Of a stretch of 64,000 bases of DNA, positions 44,366 through 53,230 are shown in pieces (positions within the stretch are counted from its first letter, which is position 1; the number at the start of each line of letters is the position of its first letter). The notes under the pieces are model-generated. The model ran no database searches and was not told the origin of the DNA. It saw only the letters and a list, made by a program, of their open reading frames with translations. The DNA lies in NCBI GenBank assembly GCA_965222115.1, contig CBDCTJ010000007.1, forward strand, positions 2,368,001-2,432,000, written 5' to 3'. This DNA is from Planctomycetota bacterium. GTDB taxonomy: Bacteria; Planctomycetota; PLA2; JAEUHO01. The translations under genes and the position numbers were made by a program.

Positions 44366-44439
44366 GCCCGCTTAGCTCAGTTGGTTAGAGCAACGGATTC
44401 TTAATCCGTGGGTCCGGGGTTCGAGTCCCTGAGCGGGTA
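44366..44439 (+). tRNA. tRNA-Lys(CTT)
   Basis: GCCCGCTTAGCTCAGTTGGTTAGAGCA-ACGGA-TTCTTAA-TCCGT...GGTTCGAGTCC...AGCGGGTA; CCA not encoded. Confidence 0.96.
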
Positions 44440-44440
44440 C
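44397..44440 (+). repeat. attL core (tRNA-Lys 3' half)
   Basis: ATTCTTAATCCGTGGGTCCGGGGTTCGAGTCCCTGAGCGGGTAC. Confidence 0.92.
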
Positions 44441-44531
44441 TTTCCATAGCGCAAATAATGGCCTTTCTGCTGCTGTCCCTCCTGTGCTCCAAACTTCATC
44501 GGGGCAGATATCGGGGCAGAAAGGACCTCCG

Positions 44532-45584
44532 ATGGCATGGATCGAGTGGCACACAACCAAAGAGGGGCAACGCACTGCAACTGTGCGCTGGCGATTCAAA
44601 GACGGCACAAAGGGACGCGAGGCGTTAGGAGTCATTGGCGCCAAGCGCGCTGAGATGTATCGCACGCATGCCGAGAAGCGATACGAAGGCAAAGACCCCG
44701 CATTGCTCCATCAAACCGACGCGAGCCTCTCGCTTGGTCTGTTCCTTGCGCATATGCGGGCCACGGATGTTTCGAGTGAGACCGTCGGCTACTACAAGGG
44801 GAAACTCACACCCGTGGTTGACGCACTTGGCCTGCGCTGGCAGTCGTGGTCGCCGCTTGCGATCGAACGGTTCTTGATGCGACGAGACTGCTCGCCGGCT
44901 ACGAAACGAAAGACGCTTGGCGCCATCCGACGCTTCGTGAGATGGGCCGAGCGAAACGGCGCGCCCGTGCACGACATGACCGATGGCGTGAGTTTGCCAA
45001 AGTCCAAGCCGGTCATTCGCGAGTACTTAACGCTCGAGCAAGTTCAAAGCGTTATCGCTGAAGCAGAGGGCCATGCGTGGCTTCAGGCGCCGGTTGCGCT
45101 GGCTGCATACGCTGGATTGTCGCTAGGCGATCTACGGTCTCTCGACTGGTCTGAGGTCGATCTCGAGAAGAACGTGATCCGACGAGTACGCGACAAGACG
45201 GGCGAGCGCATGCTCACGCCGCTCATTCCACAGCTCGTTGCCATCCTCCGGCGCGAGTGGATGCGACAGGGGCGGCCCGCTGAAGGATCTGTATGCTCTG
45301 AGTTTCCGCGCAGCAAGAGCAGCGCGGGGAAAGCGCTGCGCGCGCTCCAGGTCGCCGCGGGTATCTCTGACGCCCCCAAGGGTCAGAACGGCTGGCACCG
45401 CTACCGCCGCTCCGTTGCTACGACACTCCACAAGCTCAAGGTTCCCGGCCCGATTATTGGGCAAGTGCTCTCACATGCCCCTGACTCGATGATGTGGGCA
45501 AAGTACGTCGTGGTTGACGAGGACGACGTCGTAGAAGCCATGGAGAAGCTGGGGCGTGAGGTTGAGCGGGTGGCTGGGGGATAG
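44532..45584 (+). CDS. Tyrosine recombinase/integrase
   Basis: YAGLSLGDLRSLDW, RDKT, WHRYRRS, LSH, KY; immediately downstream of the tRNA. Confidence 0.88.
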   Translation: MAWIEWHTTKEGQRTATVRWRFKDGTKGREALGVIGAKRAEMYRTHAEKRYEGKDPALLHQTDASLSLGLFLAHMRATDVSSETVGYYKGKLTPVVDALGLRWQSWSPLAIERFLMRRDCSPATKRKTLGAIRRFVRWAERNGAPVHDMTDGVSLPKSKPVIREYLTLEQVQSVIAEAEGHAWLQAPVALAAYAGLSLGDLRSLDWSEVDLEKNVIRRVRDKTGERMLTPLIPQLVAILRREWMRQGRPAEGSVCSEFPRSKSSAGKALRALQVAAGISDAPKGQNGWHRYRRSVATTLHKLKVPGPIIGQVLSHAPDSMMWAKYVVVDEDDVVEAMEKLGREVERVAGG

Positions 45585-46162
45585 TCACCCTACACTTCCC
45601 GCGCACCGCGGCACTCCCATCCAGGCCTTGACTGGAGCGCAACCCAAAGGGATCTCTTCCGCCTCGCCTAGCCAGGGTGGCGAGGACGGCTCGGGCTCTG
45701 CCGCTGCGGTGTGGCTGCTGTGCTCGATGCTCAGCGGCAATCCGCTACGCTCTGCGCCAAGTAACATGATCTGCATGCTATGAGAGTATCCGCGTCACGG
45801 CGAATCGAGCCCATTCGAGGGCGAGCGCCCCGATCATGTCCTCCAGTTGACACCTTGCGTTTCATACGTGCGTGCAGATTAGATCAAGATGGTCGAGAGA
45901 GCGCACTGTCGGTCCATGAAGGTCTCCGGGGATGTCGCTCTCGACCGCCCCGCCAGCCTGTCGCTACAATTCGATCCCTTTCAGCGGATATGACCGCGCG
46001 ACATCGCGCCTCGCCCTCTATTCCCGAATCAGATAATGACGGATAAATTGCATCTGAATCCTCCATTGGATTAGATTGCACGGCTTGCAAGGCCATTATT
46101 TGGGATATGAGCCGCATTAGCCGCTTTCCAAGACAATTATTTTTAAGATAGGGTTTTTCTTG

Positions 46163-46191
46163 TTGCATATCTAGTTGGGATAGCGTACGAT
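46163..46191 (+). promoter_or_regulatory. sigma70-like promoter for the wHTH gene
   Basis: TTGCAT-N17-TACGAT in an AT-rich stretch, followed by a GGGAGG RBS. Confidence 0.55.
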
Positions 46192-46226
46192 GATCAATCA
46201 TAGGACCCGGAATAGGGAGGTTTCCC

Positions 46227-46730
46227 ATGCCGCTTGATGATCTCGATCGCCAGCAAATCCGAAAATTCGAAGCGCGAATGGAGTTGGCTTTAGCGGAGTT
46301 GCGCAAATGGCAGACCGCCATCAATGCCGTTCATGAGGCAGCGGACGAGAAGCCTCCCTATGACCTTCAGGATTCAGTGAGGGGTGTGGAAGAAAGGAGC
46401 GTTGGCGTAGGCTACGGGCGTGGCGAATTCCATGGGAAGCCTCTCGCCACCGTCGTCAAGCGGATTATCAGGGATCAAGGCCCGATGAGCGCGCACGAGT
46501 TGTACGAAATCATGGAAGGCGGCGGATTCGACTTTGGGGATAGCTCGGAAGGTAAGGCGCTCCATGGACTGAAAATCAGCCTGGGCAAGAATCGAGCTTT
46601 CACGAAGATGCCCAATGGCTTCTACAACATCGCCACTGAGGGTGTTAAACGCCGCAAGACCGTCAAACGCGTGCGAATAGGAGCGGATAAGGACAACGAC
46701 GAAGAGGAGGGGGCGCATGAGAGCGTGTAG
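46227..46730 (+). CDS. Coiled-coil plus winged-helix (HARE-HTH-like) protein
   Basis: KPLATVVKRII..GPMSAHELYE.M..GG...LKISL...F.KMPNG.Y; strong RBS. Confidence 0.65.
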   Translation: MPLDDLDRQQIRKFEARMELALAELRKWQTAINAVHEAADEKPPYDLQDSVRGVEERSVGVGYGRGEFHGKPLATVVKRIIRDQGPMSAHELYEIMEGGGFDFGDSSEGKALHGLKISLGKNRAFTKMPNGFYNIATEGVKRRKTVKRVRIGADKDNDEEEGAHESV

Positions 46731-46751
46731 GGGCGCGTCGAGCGTCCTCTG

Positions 46752-46930
46752 AAAAGAGCGGGGCGGGACAGCGAAACCCACCAGCCCGGAAAGCGACGGG
46801 AAGTACCGCCGCCCCGCTCAACTCGACGCGAGGAGTGGCCGTTTAAGCAGCCGCTCCTCACCAAACCTCTCAGTGTTGCCGCTCCCACTGGGAGTCCGCA
46901 TGAATACACCGATTTGGCTCGTACGTACCA
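46752..46930 (-). ncRNA. Candidate small RNA of about 180 nt
   Basis: Minus-strand TTGACA-N17-TAGTCT (46965-46937), internal hairpins, 11-bp closing stem GAGCGGGGCGG/CCGCCCCGCTC followed by TTTT. Confidence 0.45.
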
Positions 46931-46999
46931 GTATAGAGACTAATTCGGCTGTTTGGCGGTGTCAAGAGAGCGGCTCTCTCATTCTTGGAGCCAAATACA

Positions 47000-47140
47000 A
47001 TGGCAAAGCCAAAGTTGAATAGCCGCAAAGCCCCAAAGGGCAAACGACTCATCTTTCGGCCCTGGATCACGCACCCAACTACAGGGAAACGGATCTATCC
47101 ACGCAACGGCAAAGTCTTCCCAATTTGGATTGATGACTAA
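47000..47140 (+). CDS. 46-aa basic microprotein (absent from the ORF track)
   Basis: MAKPKLNSRKAPKGKRLIFRPWITHPTTGKRIYPRNGKVFPIWIDD; TTGGAG RBS; downstream terminator. Confidence 0.7.
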   Translation: MAKPKLNSRKAPKGKRLIFRPWITHPTTGKRIYPRNGKVFPIWIDD

Positions 47141-47180
47141 GCCAATCACGTCGCACACTTCATAGTGCGACGACGTATCT

Positions 47181-47238
47181 ACAGCGTCGCCCCGTATGGC
47201 AAGTGAGGGCTTGCGTGCGCGGGGCGGCGCTGTCTTTT
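47181..47238 (+). terminator. Intrinsic terminator-like stem
   Basis: ACAGCGTCGCCCCG...CGGGGCGGCGCTGT followed by CTTTT. Confidence 0.55.
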
Positions 47239-47553
47239 ACGCCCTACGCATTACCCGGTCCGCGAACACATGGATCAGGCGGCCTCTCGCCTTGCGGGGA
47301 CCACGTGTGTCGCTCTTCGTTCGCACCCTGATTCTTCGAATCCGATTTTCCTGGCGGACTCCACGCATGAATTACGAAGATCAATTAGAGCACTTCGCTA
47401 AAGCGCGAGATTGGCGTCATTTAGTGTGCAAGATTTGTGTTCGCTTAAGAATTCCTGGCGGACTCTGGGTGTGGTTTGCGAGGTAGGGGGTGTGGGGAAT
47501 GCGTAAGGACGCGCGACCCGTGAATCTAGCAACTTTGGTATAGGAGAATCGGT

Positions 47554-47940
47554 ATGCGTGTAGAGAACCGAAAGTGGAACAATGCGATGATGGGCACAAG
47601 CAACGCCTGGGCGAACCTGCCCACCCCGATGGAGTTGGAGGTTGACGGAGAAGGAAACAACTTGCTCGTTTTCGTCAACTTGTCAAGGGTGCAAAACAAC
47701 TCAAGAAATAGGAATGTCAGTTTTCGATTGGTCGTGGACGGCGCGCCGATCGCGCATGTAAATACCGGCGACGCAAGTCACTGGGGCTACGACGCGCTTT
47801 CTTTTCACGGGTATACCCGCGTCGGTAACGGGCATGTGCACGTGGAGGTCCAATACTACACGCAAGGTGGAACCGTGATTTGGTATGACAACAATGATGG
47901 AAGGCAAGAGCGCCTCTTGACTGCCGTTCGCTTCGGCTAG
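47554..47940 (+). CDS. Hypothetical all-beta protein (128 aa)
   Basis: TAGGAG RBS; alternating beta pattern (FRLVVDG, GHVHVEVQY) like a small jelly-roll domain. Confidence 0.65.
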   Translation: MRVENRKWNNAMMGTSNAWANLPTPMELEVDGEGNNLLVFVNLSRVQNNSRNRNVSFRLVVDGAPIAHVNTGDASHWGYDALSFHGYTRVGNGHVHVEVQYYTQGGTVIWYDNNDGRQERLLTAVRFG

Positions 47941-48116
47941 ATATCGAGGCTTCCGCAGGGCCTCCACGTCCACCACGTGGGGGCTCTCTTCGTTTCGGTG
48001 CTTGGTGAATCGGCCGCACGTGGGGCATGTCGCAACTGAAAATGCCCGTGGGCAAGCGGCTGTCGGACGCAAGTACGAAAGAGCGCCGCCCACGGACATG
48101 AATCTAGTTGACTCAT

Positions 48117-48269
48117 CTAGGGCTCTACGCCATTGCCTCCACATCGAGAGCAGCGTCCAGAGCCATAGCACGTGCCACACGAGCCAGGGCCTGAACCGTT
48201 GTCACCCGTTCCGAAGCAAGATCCCTGGCACTTGCCGATGCCGTCGCAATGTTGACATCGTCCAGCCAT
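48117..48269 (-). CDS. 50-aa DnaJ-type zinc-finger microprotein
   Basis: CQHCDGIG, CQGSCFGTG, CGTCYGSG, CSRCGGNG; AAGGAGG RBS. Confidence 0.75.
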   Translation of the reverse strand: MAGRCQHCDGIGKCQGSCFGTGDNGSGPGSCGTCYGSGRCSRCGGNGVEP

Positions 48270-48286
48270 TTCAGCCTCCTTTCTCA

Positions 48287-48475
48287 CTAGCAGGGCGCGC
48301 CGGTTGAGTACCAATCGCCATAGTTGACGTCAGTGACTCGTGAACTCCCGTCGTCATAGTGGGTCACCGTTGTGACGACCTTCCGCCTGTGCAGTGTTTG
48401 GGCATTCGTTGAACTGTCGTGCCTGCACTCAGTTTGATACTCGGTGCGGTGCTCTTTACGGACTTCTTCGGCCAT
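48287..48475 (-). CDS. 62-aa hypothetical protein
   Basis: TAGGAG RBS; co-oriented with the zinc-finger ORF and 17 bp upstream of it. Confidence 0.6.
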   Translation of the reverse strand: MAEEVRKEHRTEYQTECRHDSSTNAQTLHRRKVVTTVTHYDDGSSRVTDVNYGDWYSTGAPC

Positions 48476-48689
48476 TGCATTCTCCTAATTGCAGCTCACT
48501 TGAGTCGCTACTAGGATGAACGCAATTGGGGTTGGGTTCGCCTCATGGGAATTGACAGACGGATGTGAGTCGCCTTCTCGACATCGCGACTTGAGTTCTC
48601 GTATGGTGTCCATTGACTTGCGGTTTCATCTTCTATGCGCCGCGAGACTGGTGAACCGGCGCGCATGGAGAGAGGGTAGTGATCTTCTC

Positions 48690-48854
48690 CTACTTGGGAG
48701 CGCGCAAAGCGAACACGAAGTAAATCAAACTCGCCGCAAGAAACACGATGTTCACTGTCCTCGCAAACGGCGGCGCACCTTTAGGCCAAATCTGGCCGGC
48801 GAGCACGACGACGTTGAGCAGCAGGAGAATGGGGATGAGTGCTCGGTTCTTCAT
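48690..48854 (-). CDS. 54-aa two-TM microprotein
   Basis: MKNRALIPILLLLNVVVLAGQIWPKGAPPFARTVNIVFLAASLIYFVF; AAGGA RBS. Confidence 0.65.
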   Translation of the reverse strand: MKNRALIPILLLLNVVVLAGQIWPKGAPPFARTVNIVFLAASLIYFVFALRAPK

Positions 48855-48945
48855 TTGGGTTGGTCCTTGGGGGGTGTAACGCGTTGGCGGGTTGCCACAC
48901 GCTTGGTGAATCGGCCGAGCATGGAGAGAGGGTGGCGTGAGAGAG

Positions 48946-49320
48946 TTAAAACGAAGACGCAATCACAACGGCGAGCATACAAATCAACCCGGCGGTCACG
49001 AGTGCCGATGCAACCTTGTAGAGCCTCGTTCGTTTGTTGACAAGCTCGACGCTCGGATTCCAGTCAACTTGAAGAACGACTATAGAGGGAATACAGGAAG
49101 CGAAAAACAGGAGTGTGGAACATAGGCGGAGCGCGGAAGCGGCATCTTGAACGCCTCCGGCAGCGAATGGAATCGAGTTAAGCACCATTACCAGGGATGC
49201 CAGCTGGAGGAGCGCAGAGCACTTAGCGTCTAGAATGTTGAGTTGCTTATAGAGGCGCTTCTCGGCAGCGGCGGTATTGAAGACCGGTTGGCTATCTGGC
49301 GTTTGATCGTTCAACGTCAC
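48946..49320 (-). CDS. Three-TM membrane protein
   Basis: GGGAG before GTG; LNILDAKCSALL...K..LYK.A pattern. Confidence 0.6.
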   Translation of the reverse strand: MTLNDQTPDSQPVFNTAAAEKRLYKQLNILDAKCSALLQLASLVMVLNSIPFAAGGVQDAASALRLCSTLLFFASCIPSIVVLQVDWNPSVELVNKRTRLYKVASALVTAGLICMLAVVIASSF

Positions 49321-49452
49321 ACTCCCAGTTGCCTGAGGCTCAAATCGTTCGTGGCCTGTCTCGTCGGACTACCGTCCTGCCCCGTCACCCTCGCGGGTAA
49401 TTCCACTCCTAACACGTGACAATGCCACTGAAAGCAAGCGTCATGAGGATAC

Positions 49453-49788
49453 TCATGCTCTCGCGGGTGACCGTGCGGACTTGTGTCCGAGCCAGGCTGA
49501 AAGGACAAGCCCGCAGGCACCAGCGATTGCCCAGTAGATCGAAGATGTCTTGAGTTCAGCCGCATCATTAAACATCGTTTGGACTCGAGGAGGTGACTTG
49601 TATATGGTAGTAGGTGGATATCTGGTCCCCCGGGAATACCGGCCACTCCTAGCATGCTCAAGCGACCGTATGGCATCAAGAGTGATAGCCTTGACCCTGA
49701 AATCCTCTGATTTTTGATATTTAGCGTTTGCCTTCCACATCATGAACATCGAGCCTAGAAAGAGCAGGCCCACAAGCATCATGCGCAT
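49453..49788 (-). CDS. Two-TM hypothetical protein
   Basis: AAAGGAG RBS; hydrophobic helices at both termini. Confidence 0.55.
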   Translation of the reverse strand: MRMMLVGLLFLGSMFMMWKANAKYQKSEDFRVKAITLDAIRSLEHARSGRYSRGTRYPPTTIYKSPPRVQTMFNDAAELKTSSIYWAIAGACGLVLSAWLGHKSARSPARA

Positions 49789-50892
49789 CGAGTCTCCTTT
49801 GCTTGTTCCTTGTTCTGTTTTCGTAGGTGGCGAAGTTCTATCGCCTTCGCGGGCCACTCATTATTGAAACGCTCGACGCGTGTGAATCTCAATACTCAAA
49901 CAAAGGCAGGAGCGTCGCCAACCTGCACATCGCCCCTTGAAGCCATCAGCCTGGTGCGGATGATTCCCGTAAGCATTGGCGGCGAGTATAGGTCGCAGGC
50001 TAGTGAACGGCGCCGCAGTTTTTGAAGTTGTAGCCCCACGAATTTTTACCCTTTGGGAACTGGGTGTTGAAAACCAGCCTCTCCGAATGAGCAATTGACT
50101 TTGCTCCTGAAGTGTTTGTGAAATTGCCTTTCTCATGAACACGACCGTCGCGTTCTTGGCCAGTATAGCGTCAGAAGCATGCGCTTCCACAAACATGCAG
50201 AAACAGATGGCCACGCTCCGACGCGAGTGCGAGTGACGGACGCACTTCGACGTCTCGCGACAGTGGAAGCCAAGGCAGATCGAAACGCCGACGAGGACTT
50301 CAAGCGCCACGAAGCCGAGCAGATGCTGGAGCGGATTGACGCGAGACTTAGGGCTCTAGAGGCAAATTCAAAAATAGCGTCGATACGCACGTTGTGGAGC
50401 GTAGAGTGGATGCTGACGCTGGTGGCTGCTTCTGGGGCGTAAGAGTTCCCCATCCACCACGATTGCTTGCATTCGACCAGGGGAGATCCCCACCGGTGTC
50501 ACTGTTGGGGTAGAGTGTGTGTTGACGCCCTCGGCTGCCCAATGGCGTAAGACCTAATCCCCTAACCCGAATCTCTCGAGATTCGTTTTCATGAAGGTCC
50601 CCGGGGGTGTCGCTAATCGCACGACATGCGATCGTCAATGTTGTGCTGTCGCAACCGGCAAAGCGGCTGTATAAGGCGAAGTGGGCGAAGACTAATATGG
50701 ACGCGGCTCCGCTACCTGCTCTCATGCGCGCGATGTCCGGCGGTTGCTTGTCCACACCAAGCAACTGGATCTTCCATTCCGCACACCGAGTTTCGATCTA
50801 CGCTCATTCAAAGAAGGTCCCCATCGGCATCATCTTCCCGCGCTACGCGCCCAACACAACTCCGACGAGGTGACTCCGTTACATGCCTTGGT

Positions 50893-52485
50893 TCACCTTT
50901 TTGCAGGCGATTCGCTCTCAGCTTCGCAGGGACCACCTTGCCGCTGCTCCCTGTAGTAATCAAGCCATGTTCTATCTATGTCAAGGGCCTCACCGCTGCG
51001 CAGGGGGACGTCAAACGGCGGGAGCCCGCCGGGCCTGATTGAGACGAAGTCCAGCATGCGCGGGCCTGCATATGGCAGCCAGCCTTGCGCGAGCGCACGT
51101 TTTAGAAATGCCCTGCCCTCTGATGACTCATAGGGAAGAGGTCTGTAGCCTCTGGTCAGTTTGTCGTAGCGATCGTCAAAGTACCCGACGATCGAAACCA
51201 ATGGGCGCGAGGAAAGTTTGTGGTTTCTCCAACAATTGATTGTGTGAATTCGAGACCCTACCTCTTTGTCATGTAGGTCATCTTGACTGTCCTGTTTGCG
51301 GACATTTTCGATACTCGCAGTTAATATGGATTTACCTCTCAATTTGAATCGCCTTGCAACTGGTAGATTGACCATGTGGGGCCATTCCCTGCATTCGCCA
51401 CTTGCGGCTTGCCTGTTTCTGAATTTCTCGCAACTGGTTGAGCTGAGATCATCACCCCAGCAATCAGCTTCCCAAACTCCCTCAAGGCTAATCCAATCCA
51501 CAGAACGCAAGAGAGCATTTCTGGTGTTCTCATCCGCGCTTTTGAACTCGCGACCGTTACTTCCGCAGAGTGGATATGAGTTGACAAGGCTCCAGGGGTT
51601 CTGAACACAAACCACGAAGTCCTTGGATTCGTTTCGCGCGCGGGCCGTCTTCGCCAGCTCAACCACGAGGCGAGCCATATTGCTCACTCCCTGATCGCGG
51701 CATCTTTCATACAATTTGCTCGCTGCTTTCTTCGCTTTCTCTTGATCATTCGCGTCCTCATAAAGATCTTTCAAGTATTCAAGGACGAGCGCCTGCTTTA
51801 CTCGATTGCCATTGGTGTCTGGTGTGGCTCCCTTCTTCTCAGGCTCATACATCCACCAGCTATAGTCAGCAATGCCGTTGATGTTGTCAAGAAACACGCC
51901 GTCAAATCCAGCCTTTATAATTTCATGAAGATAGGATGGTCCGGTTCGTGGTTCACCTTTTGATTTGCGATCTCCGAGTAAAATGCGCAGCCATTCCGAA
52001 TGATTCGGATCCATGTAAAATTCTTTGTGCGTACTATCTGACCAGCTGCTTGGCATCAGTACGCCAGTTGCGAGAGACTTGGGAAACTTACTTGTGCCAA
52101 AGAACTTCTTTTTCAGGTGCTCCTTGTTCTTGGAAGCCGTCCAATAATCCCGCCAGGTTTCGCAGCACCCTACATTTAGATATGCAATGACGAGTCCATC
52201 ATTGTTGCGAAGGAATTTTCGATACAACTCGACGGACGAGTTTTCTTTGCCATTGATCGCGTCGTCAGGATCAATAACGACGACGTCGTAGTGGCCCTTG
52301 ACGCGTTCGAGCTTCGATGGGCGGGGAGTGTCTAGTATTGAGGCCCATGCCATCGCGTTACGAACCTGTGCTCGCTTGCCTGCTACTTTAGCTTGCTGGT
52401 CGTCAGCAGCGGCTTTCGGGCTAGCGGCCACCAAAAGCGCGATCGCCAAAATTGACACTCGCCGAATTCCTACGCCCATAATCAT
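50893..52485 (-). CDS. Secreted endo-alpha-1,4-polygalactosaminidase-like glycoside hydrolase (GH114/GH166, TM1410-type)
   Basis: Signal peptide; YDVVVIDP, IAYLNVG..E.WRDYW, YMDP...W, AGFDGVFLDN, QN, ISLEG. Confidence 0.78.
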   Translation of the reverse strand: MIMGVGIRRVSILAIALLVAASPKAAADDQQAKVAGKRAQVRNAMAWASILDTPRPSKLERVKGHYDVVVIDPDDAINGKENSSVELYRKFLRNNDGLVIAYLNVGCCETWRDYWTASKNKEHLKKKFFGTSKFPKSLATGVLMPSSWSDSTHKEFYMDPNHSEWLRILLGDRKSKGEPRTGPSYLHEIIKAGFDGVFLDNINGIADYSWWMYEPEKKGATPDTNGNRVKQALVLEYLKDLYEDANDQEKAKKAASKLYERCRDQGVSNMARLVVELAKTARARNESKDFVVCVQNPWSLVNSYPLCGSNGREFKSADENTRNALLRSVDWISLEGVWEADCWGDDLSSTSCEKFRNRQAASGECREWPHMVNLPVARRFKLRGKSILTASIENVRKQDSQDDLHDKEVGSRIHTINCWRNHKLSSRPLVSIVGYFDDRYDKLTRGYRPLPYESSEGRAFLKRALAQGWLPYAGPRMLDFVSIRPGGLPPFDVPLRSGEALDIDRTWLDYYREQRQGGPCEAESESPAKR

Positions 52486-52725
52486 CCTCCACGCTGTTCT
52501 GGTTCAAACTTGAACCCGCCAAGTTAGGGCTCTCGCGTGCGTGGTCAAGTTGGCTACGCAATCGCTCACCCAGTCGCGCGGGCTGGCCATCGGGGCATCT
52601 CATCGAGGCAACACCTCCAGAAACGGCGATTGGCGCGACTTTGCGTGTGTTGACAGTTAGCGCCAAACGGCTAGTATTAGCCACAAATCCTCATTTTAAG
52701 GGTGCGGCAGAATAGCCATTTTCGA

Positions 52726-52769
52726 ATTCTTAATCCGTGGGTCCGAGGTTCGAGTCCCTGAGCGGGTAC
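52726..52769 (+). repeat. attR core
   Basis: ATTCTTAATCCGTGGGTCCGAGGTTCGAGTCCCTGAGCGGGTAC; 43/44 identical to attL. Confidence 0.92.
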
Positions 52770-52888: not shown

Positions 52889-52942
52889 GGCCCTTCGATG
52901 CGCACTGCGTGGATCTTCGATCCACTAGTGCTTACTCAGGAT
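52889..52942 (-). repeat. Inverted partial copy of the structured repeat
   Basis: GGCCCTTCGATGCGCACTGC-hairpin-GTGCTTACTCAGGAT, a reverse-complement match to 53149-53202. Confidence 0.8.
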
Positions 52943-53080
52943 CTACGATTTCATCGGGTCTTCGACCCTCGAAATCTCCGACACGCGCCTAGAGCAATCT
53001 ATACCTTCTTTAGTCGTGGTCACGCGTAGGTGGAGACTCGTGCATGTCACACTTGGTGAAGCGCGTTGGACTCAAGCACC

Positions 53081-53230
53081 GCAACCTGTCATGTTTCAAT
53101 TCTCAGGAGGCGGATTGAATGTCCAAGGGCAAAGCACTTGGACGTGAAATCCTGAGTAAGCACAAGCGGATCTCTGATCCGTGCAGTGCGCATCGAAGGG
53201 CCGATCTGGAGGTCTCGTGTGTCCTCAAGT
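53081..53230 (+). repeat. 150-bp structured repeat, copy A
   Basis: Ungapped match to 56056-56205; three stacked hairpins. Confidence 0.88.

Follow-up and report, generated by a model that had tools for sequence, protein, structure and literature searches.

What are the short repeats that punctuate a cluster of very small genes in a planctomycete genome, and do they mark a route by which those genes were captured? The cluster lies in a window of 64,000 nt (Planctomycetota bacterium, GenBank assembly GCA_965222115.1, contig CBDCTJ010000007.1, positions 2,368,001 to 2,432,000; coordinates below are those of this window), where six short open reading frames (ORFs) occupy positions 47554–49788, one on the plus strand (p128) and five on the minus strand. 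A first-pass annotation, made from the sequence alone, had noted an element of about 33 bp beginning 12 nt after the stop codons of the 124-aa and 54-aa ORFs, and had proposed a non-integron gene-capture system in which each acquisition duplicates a target site, thereby building an accessory or defence array. Judged by its sequence, the 33-bp element is the first 33 bp of a DNA-repair gene of the SRAP/YedK family (an 11-nt leader, an ATG and about six codons, x-G-R-F-T-K); it is neither a regulatory box nor an attC-like site.

The element is present in three copies, all on the minus strand and all in the same orientation as the small genes. Copy C (48901–48933) is the full 33-mer and reads ACCCTCTCTCC followed by ATG CTC GGC CGA TTC ACC AAG C (M-L-G-R-F-T-K). 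Copy B (48646–48677) has the leader ACCCTCTCTCC, ATG and CGC, then a 1-nt deletion, giving M-R-(G)-R-F-T after frame correction; it matches C at 28 of 33 aligned positions, with the one 1-nt deletion and with the last 15 nt identical. Copy A (47986–48032), a relic of a SRAP start with ACG in place of ATG, lies 84 nt past the stop of p50, and its 17-nt core (48000–48016) matches half of C at 17 of 17 positions whereas the next 16 nt match at only six. The geometry described in the first-pass annotation is thus accurate in detail: the 12-nt spacer between stop codon and repeat is exact for both p124 (TAA CTCTCTCACGCC) and p54 (TAG GAGAAGATCACT), the two spacer sequences being unrelated to each other, and the 17-bp core copy is where it was placed, beyond the pair of genes that includes the Cys-rich ORF. 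Such similarity is not expected by chance, the 33-mer with up to three mismatches having no match in 100 shuffles. A 12-nt core, TGGTGAAYCGGC, occurs exactly at the three copies and nowhere else in the 64 kb, and blastn-short finds no further copy of the repeat in the 4.55-Mb genome.

Similarity among the copies is distributed in blocks. Copy C shares its codon block with A (17/17) and its leader block with B (15/15), while the halves that are not shared differ at 10 of 16 positions in one case (Fisher p 9e-5) and at 5 of 17 in the other (p 0.046), a mosaic of the kind expected for recombinant junctions. The blocks meet at codon 2, which is CTC, CGC or TGC depending on the copy. Up to the edge of the 33-mer the flanks are unrelated, Smith–Waterman scores on 60- and 150-nt flanks falling within those of shuffles.

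The identity of the element came from the genome itself. In a blastn comparison the copy-A region matches one other place at 21 of 23 nt, and this match falls on the start codon of a full SRAP/YedK-family gene (start MCGRFTKHLTHEE; PF02586, 1.4e-67, profile positions 1–213). Proteins of this family have the hallmark N-terminus MCGRF, with Cys2 directly after the start codon, and MCGR[FY] opens each of the 27 other planctomycete SRAP genes for which a start could be located. On the gene strand the translations are MLGRFTKR for copy C, M-R, a frameshift and then RFT for copy B, and TCGRFTKHRNEE for copy A, whose codons are ACG TGC GGC CGA TTC ACC AAG CAC CGA AAC GAA GAG (T-C-G-R-F-T-K-H-R-N-E-E). 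Among the 9.1 million residues obtained by translating the whole genome in six frames, CGRFTKH is found at two sites, the start of the genome's SRAP gene and copy A; the shorter word GRFTK turns up seven times, three of them at the sites treated here. There is a practical lesson in this: where short ‘punctuation’ repeats follow stop codons, their gene-strand translation should be inspected before they are called regulatory or recombination motifs.

None of the three starts is intact. Cys2 has become Leu in C, Cys2 has become Arg in B, which is also frameshifted, and ATG has become ACG in A. Nor is there a gene body behind them: Pfam finds a SRAP domain neither in the 106 aa that continue copy A nor in the copy-C stub, and tblastn with the genome's own SRAP protein aligns 17 residues at A, 14 at C and nothing more, the similarity after copy A stopping at about the convergent p128 and its terminator. 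The copy-C stub is a 23-codon ORF (48855–48922) that ends in an ATGA overlapping the start of p54, an arrangement that could provide translational coupling to that gene. The genome's only SRAP gene (G000:C7:1560923-1561615; L042:1024-1716) sits in a stretch of lower GC content beside a GNAT acetyltransferase. A search of 39 further genomes of the order found SRAP in none, against 135 of 400 in the phylum; it is an accessory gene in this lineage, and the genome's copy was probably acquired horizontally. SRAP genes are reported among the ‘extra’ genes of prophages (PMC5537653).

We read the repeats as fossil junction scars, left as small segments were stacked at the 5' end of a SRAP gene that the island formerly carried, and we put the probability of this reading at about 0.5. 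When DNA is inserted by recombination inside a gene end, same-orientation stubs of that end are left between unrelated segments, and the identification of the repeat as the start of a SRAP-family gene gives support to the earlier idea that each acquisition duplicates a target site. That idea stands as a fair reading of the anatomy, gene-start stubs between unrelated genes; what it lacks is an assigned recombinase, and the body of the target gene is gone. Whereas the repeat, its spacing, its SRAP identity, the island borders and the absence of the repeat from the collections searched are observed, how the insertions took place, in what order and by which enzyme is what we infer. In the order that we favour, the SRAP gene would at first have stood on the island after p124. 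A segment carrying p62 and p50 would then have been inserted within the first SRAP codons, and p54 would have followed at the upstream stub, each insertion leaving a duplicated stub as gene-end-targeting elements do. The SRAP body would have been lost later, at the end of the convergent p128, so that copy A would be the remnant of the SRAP start proper and B and C the stubs further upstream. The codon use of p54 is the most host-like of the cluster, and this segment alone has relatives in other genomes, which fits a separate origin for the gene. The array is now a fossil, since all three starts are inactivated and there is no sign of ongoing recombination. In contigs from four sequencing runs of a single study the island is unchanged and no copy is joined to another; contigs drop rare variants, so rare forms could escape this check.

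Several observations count against stacking by insertion. The repeat is known from a single locus of a single genome, in three copies only, too few to test the insertion history. No recombinase can be tied to the stub sites: the single integrase of the island acts at a tRNA gene, the 33-mer and the attachment (att) sequence have no common word longer than 5 nt (by eye), and the 33-mer has no inverted-repeat core of the kind typical of tyrosine-recombinase sites, bar the palindrome TCGGCCGA. The SRAP homology past copy A is short, with Pfam blind to it in the 106-aa continuation. Elsewhere, no stub was found within 1.5 kb of SRAP genes in 27 cases (those with a placeable start among 30 planctomycete genes) or near p54 homologues at 13 loci, and the SRAP 5' end is thus not marked as a general target. 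Finally, homologous or illegitimate recombination could give the same picture with no site-specific enzyme at all. On that alternative the repeats are passive scars at the SRAP start, made by local duplication or by recombination (whether unequal, homologous or illegitimate), with no mobile cassettes and nothing more than the debris of a decaying island. We consider this unlikely, if by no means negligible. Every copy is dead and the SRAP body is gone, as such debris would be; no recombinase is assigned, the four runs hold no variants and no parallel is seen elsewhere; and the variation of codon 2 at the block junction is untidy for site-specific exchange. Against passive scarring, the flanks show no relation even next to the 33-mer, which leaves no larger duplicated unit visible, blocks of 15–17 bp are very short for homologous recombination, and three same-orientation copies after different sets of genes require several independent events.

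The equal spacing of 12 nt after two stop codons is a further point that stacking by insertion does not predict, and passive recombination leaves it unexplained as well. It would have to be a coincidence, the odds of which we estimate, for random positions in the 91- and 214-nt gaps concerned, to lie between about 1 in 60 and 1 in 180, and it is the best argument for a functional site associated with gene 3' ends, for example a transcription roadblock. The repeat would then be a selected cis-acting site, where a protein, perhaps p167 of the island, binds an asymmetric sequence at the ends of genes. It could serve as a stoperator-like roadblock, as an operator or as a convergent antisense promoter, and its SRAP likeness would be incidental or co-opted. 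In favour of such a site are the exactness of the 12-nt core in all three copies and its confinement to them, an orientation that follows the direction of transcription, and the presence on the island of a likely winged-helix protein, p167. Mycobacteriophage stoperators, as portrayed in PMC9283540, are asymmetric 13-mers in short intergenic spaces, oriented in keeping with transcription. A binding site does not, however, explain why the conserved blocks consist of leader, ATG and SRAP codons; conservation runs in blocks and has no shared core at its centre, the terminator-like hairpins of both convergent units are passed before copy A is reached, no extra sites are found near the promoters of the regulator or the integrase, and the RNA folds no better than shuffles (z –0.65 to –0.98). 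We regard a cis-acting site as very doubtful on these grounds. An RNA element was likewise rejected, the folds of all three copies on both strands being no better than those of shuffles; the plus strand at copy A alone departs from this (z –2.77), and there the p128 terminator accounts for the fold. In the Rfam search at E ≤ 1 only the tRNA scored above its gathering threshold, two further matches lying far below theirs.

A shared 3' untranslated region of p54 was also considered and rejected: in 32 comparisons of the flanks at four homologue loci with those on the island, similarity was not significant, none being matched in score by four or fewer of 400 shuffles. A word, TGGCGAA(A)TCGG, does occur upstream of both p54 copies of one genome (G034), in opposite orientation, and is absent at the other two loci.

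What of an active system? Taken in full, the proposal amounts to an active non-integron capture platform: small cassettes would be placed one after another by a recombinase at a specific site, now recognisable as the SRAP start, to build an accessory or defence array. It draws on the same anatomy as stacking by insertion (gene-start stubs between unrelated small genes that all point one way, mosaic blocks of sequence, and two stubs set 12 nt after stop codons), and several results run against it. Failure to find the repeat elsewhere had been named as grounds for refuting the proposal, and this is the outcome: the gapped repeat pattern is absent from genome_contigs, metagenome_contigs and viral_contigs. 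A stricter pattern has no match in 400 other genomes of the Planctomycetota, nor has the 33-mer, at three mismatches or fewer, in the 39 genomes of the order. These absences weigh little alone because the neighbouring genes are ORFans too, p124 and p128 among them, cargo that itself speaks against an active platform. The missing stubs at the 27 SRAP genes and 13 p54 loci weigh in the same direction. Tblastn found no relative of the island integrase at the 30 SRAP loci at E ≤ 0.01, and five islands with related integrases are without arrays, the repeats in the nearest of them being coding paralogues. The copies are decayed, and the four-run contigs show no inter-copy joints. The claim of a working capture system is therefore unsupported, and so is that of a defence array, none of the 11 island proteins matching a PADLOC defence family at E ≤ 0.01. 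We hold an active platform to be highly improbable.

Comparison with known systems helps to place the locus. SXT/R391 elements at prfC and the dusA-specific islands integrate at a gene's 5' end, for which they bring a substitute start. As in the present case, a copy of the target start stands at the border of the element, and the stubs keep leader, ATG, first codons and gene orientation. Those elements differ in being 10–100 kb long, in carrying their own integrase and in leaving the target intact; here the segments measure 0.25–0.65 kb and have no recombinase, the target SRAP gene is itself island cargo and has been destroyed, and no second instance is known. The locus thus resembles gene-end targeting in its scars only. 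Another parallel in layout is the CIME-type tandem accretion of integrase-less elements at an att site (CIME, cis-mobilizable element), where repeated copies of a target-gene end likewise part segments without recombinases. Such cases are reported with parent elements, integrases and variation among strains, none of which could be shown at this locus.

In sites of the pdif type, 11-bp XerC and XerD arms are inverted around a 6-bp spacer, and the orientation of the sites alternates. Arms of this kind are missing from the 33-mer, all copies of which are direct; inspection shows no dyad in it beyond the 8-bp palindrome TCGGCCGA, and the arms to either side do not form inverted repeats. In other respects dif modules, as known from Acinetobacter plasmids, are similar: they are small accessory modules bounded by short (28-bp) conserved sites, with the recombinase encoded elsewhere (PMC6449649, PMC13141974). 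Integron arrays and clusters of attC sites lacking integron-integrases (CALINs) also share with the locus short, promoter-less, same-direction genes, each closely trailed by a repeat that looks like a recombination site, and CALINs may lack an adjacent integrase (PMC4889954/bioRxiv 10.1101/030866 and PMC9024848). The resemblance does not extend to the sites themselves. Taking attC sites as imperfect palindromes of about 57–141 bp that end in R'' (RYYYAAC) and R' (GTTRRRY) and fold into a hairpin, we found no R''...R' pair at a spacing of 35–135 nt on either strand of 47500–49900 (shuffles average 0.33). The repeat is a gene start rather than a folded palindrome, its fold is no better than chance (z about –0.7 to –1), and no IntI is present: the NCBIfam matches of the island integrase include no integron-integrase model, as the first-pass annotation had also concluded for attC and IntI alike. 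The integrase lies 2.5 kb from the array, is convergent with it and sits at the tRNA att site.

A more specific version of stacking by insertion deserves mention. The stubs could be att-type scars of undescribed miniature cassettes without recombinases, which would enter the first codons of SRAP/YedK genes borne on mobile elements, stacking in the manner of integron cassettes with a gene start as their dock, and fossil at this locus. We think this quite unlikely. A limited keyword search found no paper on SRAP genes as integration targets, which is weak evidence of absence. If the repeats are insertion scars, the start of an accessory gene within a mobile island would have served as a docking point for very small segments, and the locus would be a 5'-end, island-internal example of cassettes stacked at a gene end. 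At present that example is a single decayed locus with ORFan cargo in one metagenome-assembled genome.

The small-gene cluster sits within an ordinary 8.3-kb tRNA-Lys island of one uncultured planctomycete. A tRNA-Lys(CTT) gene at 44366–44440 (plus strand; ARAGORN, Rfam tRNA 69.6 bits) contributes its 3' 47 nt as attL (44394–44440, plus strand, from a direct-repeat search), and a 47-nt copy of this tRNA 3' end, 45 of 47 positions identical, forms attR at the right border (52723–52769, plus strand). Next to the tRNA gene lies a phage-type tyrosine integrase of 366 aa (44484–45584, plus strand; PF00589 8.5e-12, phrog_1 1.1e-31), whose NCBIfam matches are to XerA/XerC/XerD-type models only, at 33–52 bits against cut-offs of 220–335. 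With its integrase beside a tRNA gene and the tRNA 3' end repeated at the opposite border, the locus shows both features of a tRNA-integrated island. Pfam, PHROGs and NCBIfam identify no second recombinase in it. In one sequencing run (X1) the island (44411–52755) is a separate contig of 8345 nt that breaks at the att repeats. In all four relatives examined the orthologue of the left flank is followed by tRNA-Lys, with neither this integrase nor p530 within 3–7 kb; the right-flank genes were likewise not found at these four loci, and the right flank is not syntenic.

A locus search through the integrase found no related island. The nearest integrases in the order are 31–42% identical, lie at tRNA-Phe, -His, -Leu and -Glu and have no cargo in common with this island, and the five islands that carry them hold no intergenic repeat array of this kind. 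The nearest, with the closest integrase (42% identity), measures 9.8 kb, lies at tRNA-Phe and has att repeats of 45 nt that match perfectly (L023:1209-11045, in G013:C39); its repeats are coding paralogues, in the form of two tandem genes of about 111–116 aa, and a perfect 176-nt tandem duplication. Elsewhere in the present genome two fragments 70–82% identical to the island integrase (G000:C3:323174-323489) are probably a remnant of a sister element. Just outside attR there is a 54-nt inverted repeat, 87% complementary (52889–52942 and 53149–53202), which belongs to a family with more than 40 blastn matches on contigs C1, C3, C5 and C7 and is probably a host element resembling repetitive extragenic palindromes or miniature inverted-repeat transposable elements. 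The 33-mer is not part of this family, and a 14/16 match to it at 53048–53063 does not extend; both were discarded as sources of the repeat.

The small genes themselves are unrelated to one another, as the first-pass annotation had held: in all-against-all BLASTP no pair of the six reaches E < 1, and paralogy of p124 and p54 in particular is rejected (E = 27). A Shine–Dalgarno-like motif lies 2–11 nt upstream of each (AGGAGA, AAGGAGG, AGGAGA, AAGGA, GGGAG and AAGGAG, in the order p128, p50, p62, p54, p124, p111). Codon statistics favour p54, p124 and p128 as coding; p62 scores at the borderline, and the scores of p111 and the Cys-rich ORF are weak. Searches of the small ORFs against Pfam, NCBIfam and PADLOC gave no match, and the PHROGs gave only a marginal one, for p62.

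The sole cargo gene of the cluster with relatives in other genomes is p54 (48690–48854, minus strand), which lies between copies C and B, has the best coding score (0.22) and is predicted from hydropathy to be a small membrane protein with two transmembrane segments. Homologues occur in three genomes (G034, with two copies 1.9 kb apart, G026 and G015) and in 22 further clusters of a large protein set; the family is present in 13 of 400 other Planctomycetota genomes, with the closest relatives 81% identical. Its members are proteins of about 54 aa with two transmembrane segments and a consensus of approximately LNVVVL.GQ.WPE.APPFAR. The gene p124 (48946–49320, minus strand) encodes an ORFan membrane protein with three hydrophobic segments by hydropathy. 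A search of 5.8e9 proteins returned p124 itself only, as did a search with p128, and none of the 39 genomes of the order has a p124 relative; an ESM lead from p124 to Pycsar transmembrane effectors reached a score of only 0.89–0.90.

On the downstream side, p62 (48287–48475, minus strand) is a small soluble ORF 17 nt upstream of p50, with a coding score of 0.037; its only family match is to phrog_8391, of unknown function (E 0.0099). The Cys/Gly-rich mini-protein p50 (48117–48269, minus strand) has CxxCxGxG-like repeats, which we take to resemble the zinc fingers of DnaJ, a strong Shine–Dalgarno motif (AAGGAGG) and no family match; it is also listed as a 65-aa ORF with a TTG start, extending to 48314, a form for which the coding score is weak. 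At the other end of the cluster p111 (49453–49788, minus strand) has a strong Shine–Dalgarno motif and hydrophobic ends, a coding score of –0.055 and no repeat after its stop. The convergent p128 (47554–47940, plus strand) encodes an all-beta ORFan and is followed by a hairpin terminator at 47957–47987 found by the terminator scan. Its ESM features are like those of the N-terminal lectin domain of Bc2l-C (score 0.96), and its structure model has a predicted local distance difference test score (pLDDT) of 52. Upstream of p128 an exact 14-nt direct repeat, TTCCTGGCGGACTC, occurs at 47348–47361 and 47452–47465, 104 nt apart; at least two matches to it were obtained in 15 of 100 shuffles, and it may be either chance or a regulatory pair.

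Two further cargo genes lie outside the cluster. On the plus strand, p167 (46227–46730) is modelled as a long N-terminal helix and a winged-helix domain (pLDDT 87), which makes it a possible DNA-binding protein of the island; its Foldseek matches, all weak (E 0.05–0.4), are mostly to winged-helix DNA-binding domains (forkhead, the N-domain of RNA polymerase delta, IclR and MecI). It has 284 homologues at E ≤ 1e-3. Relatives were found at two metagenome loci and in three genomes, none of them with a match to the island integrase, and viral_contigs gave no such locus. In two unrelated contigs (L029 and L034) a p167 homologue lies directly beside tRNA-Thr(CGT). On the minus strand, p530 (50893–52485) is a putative secreted glycoside hydrolase of the GH114/TM1410-like type (PF03537 3.7e-5; TIGR01370 3e-12), both scores being below the curated cut-offs. 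Downstream of p530, a stretch of about 105 nt (50732–50837) has an 88% identical copy at G000:C1:16180-16285, which lies about 100 nt from a member of the 54-nt repeat family.

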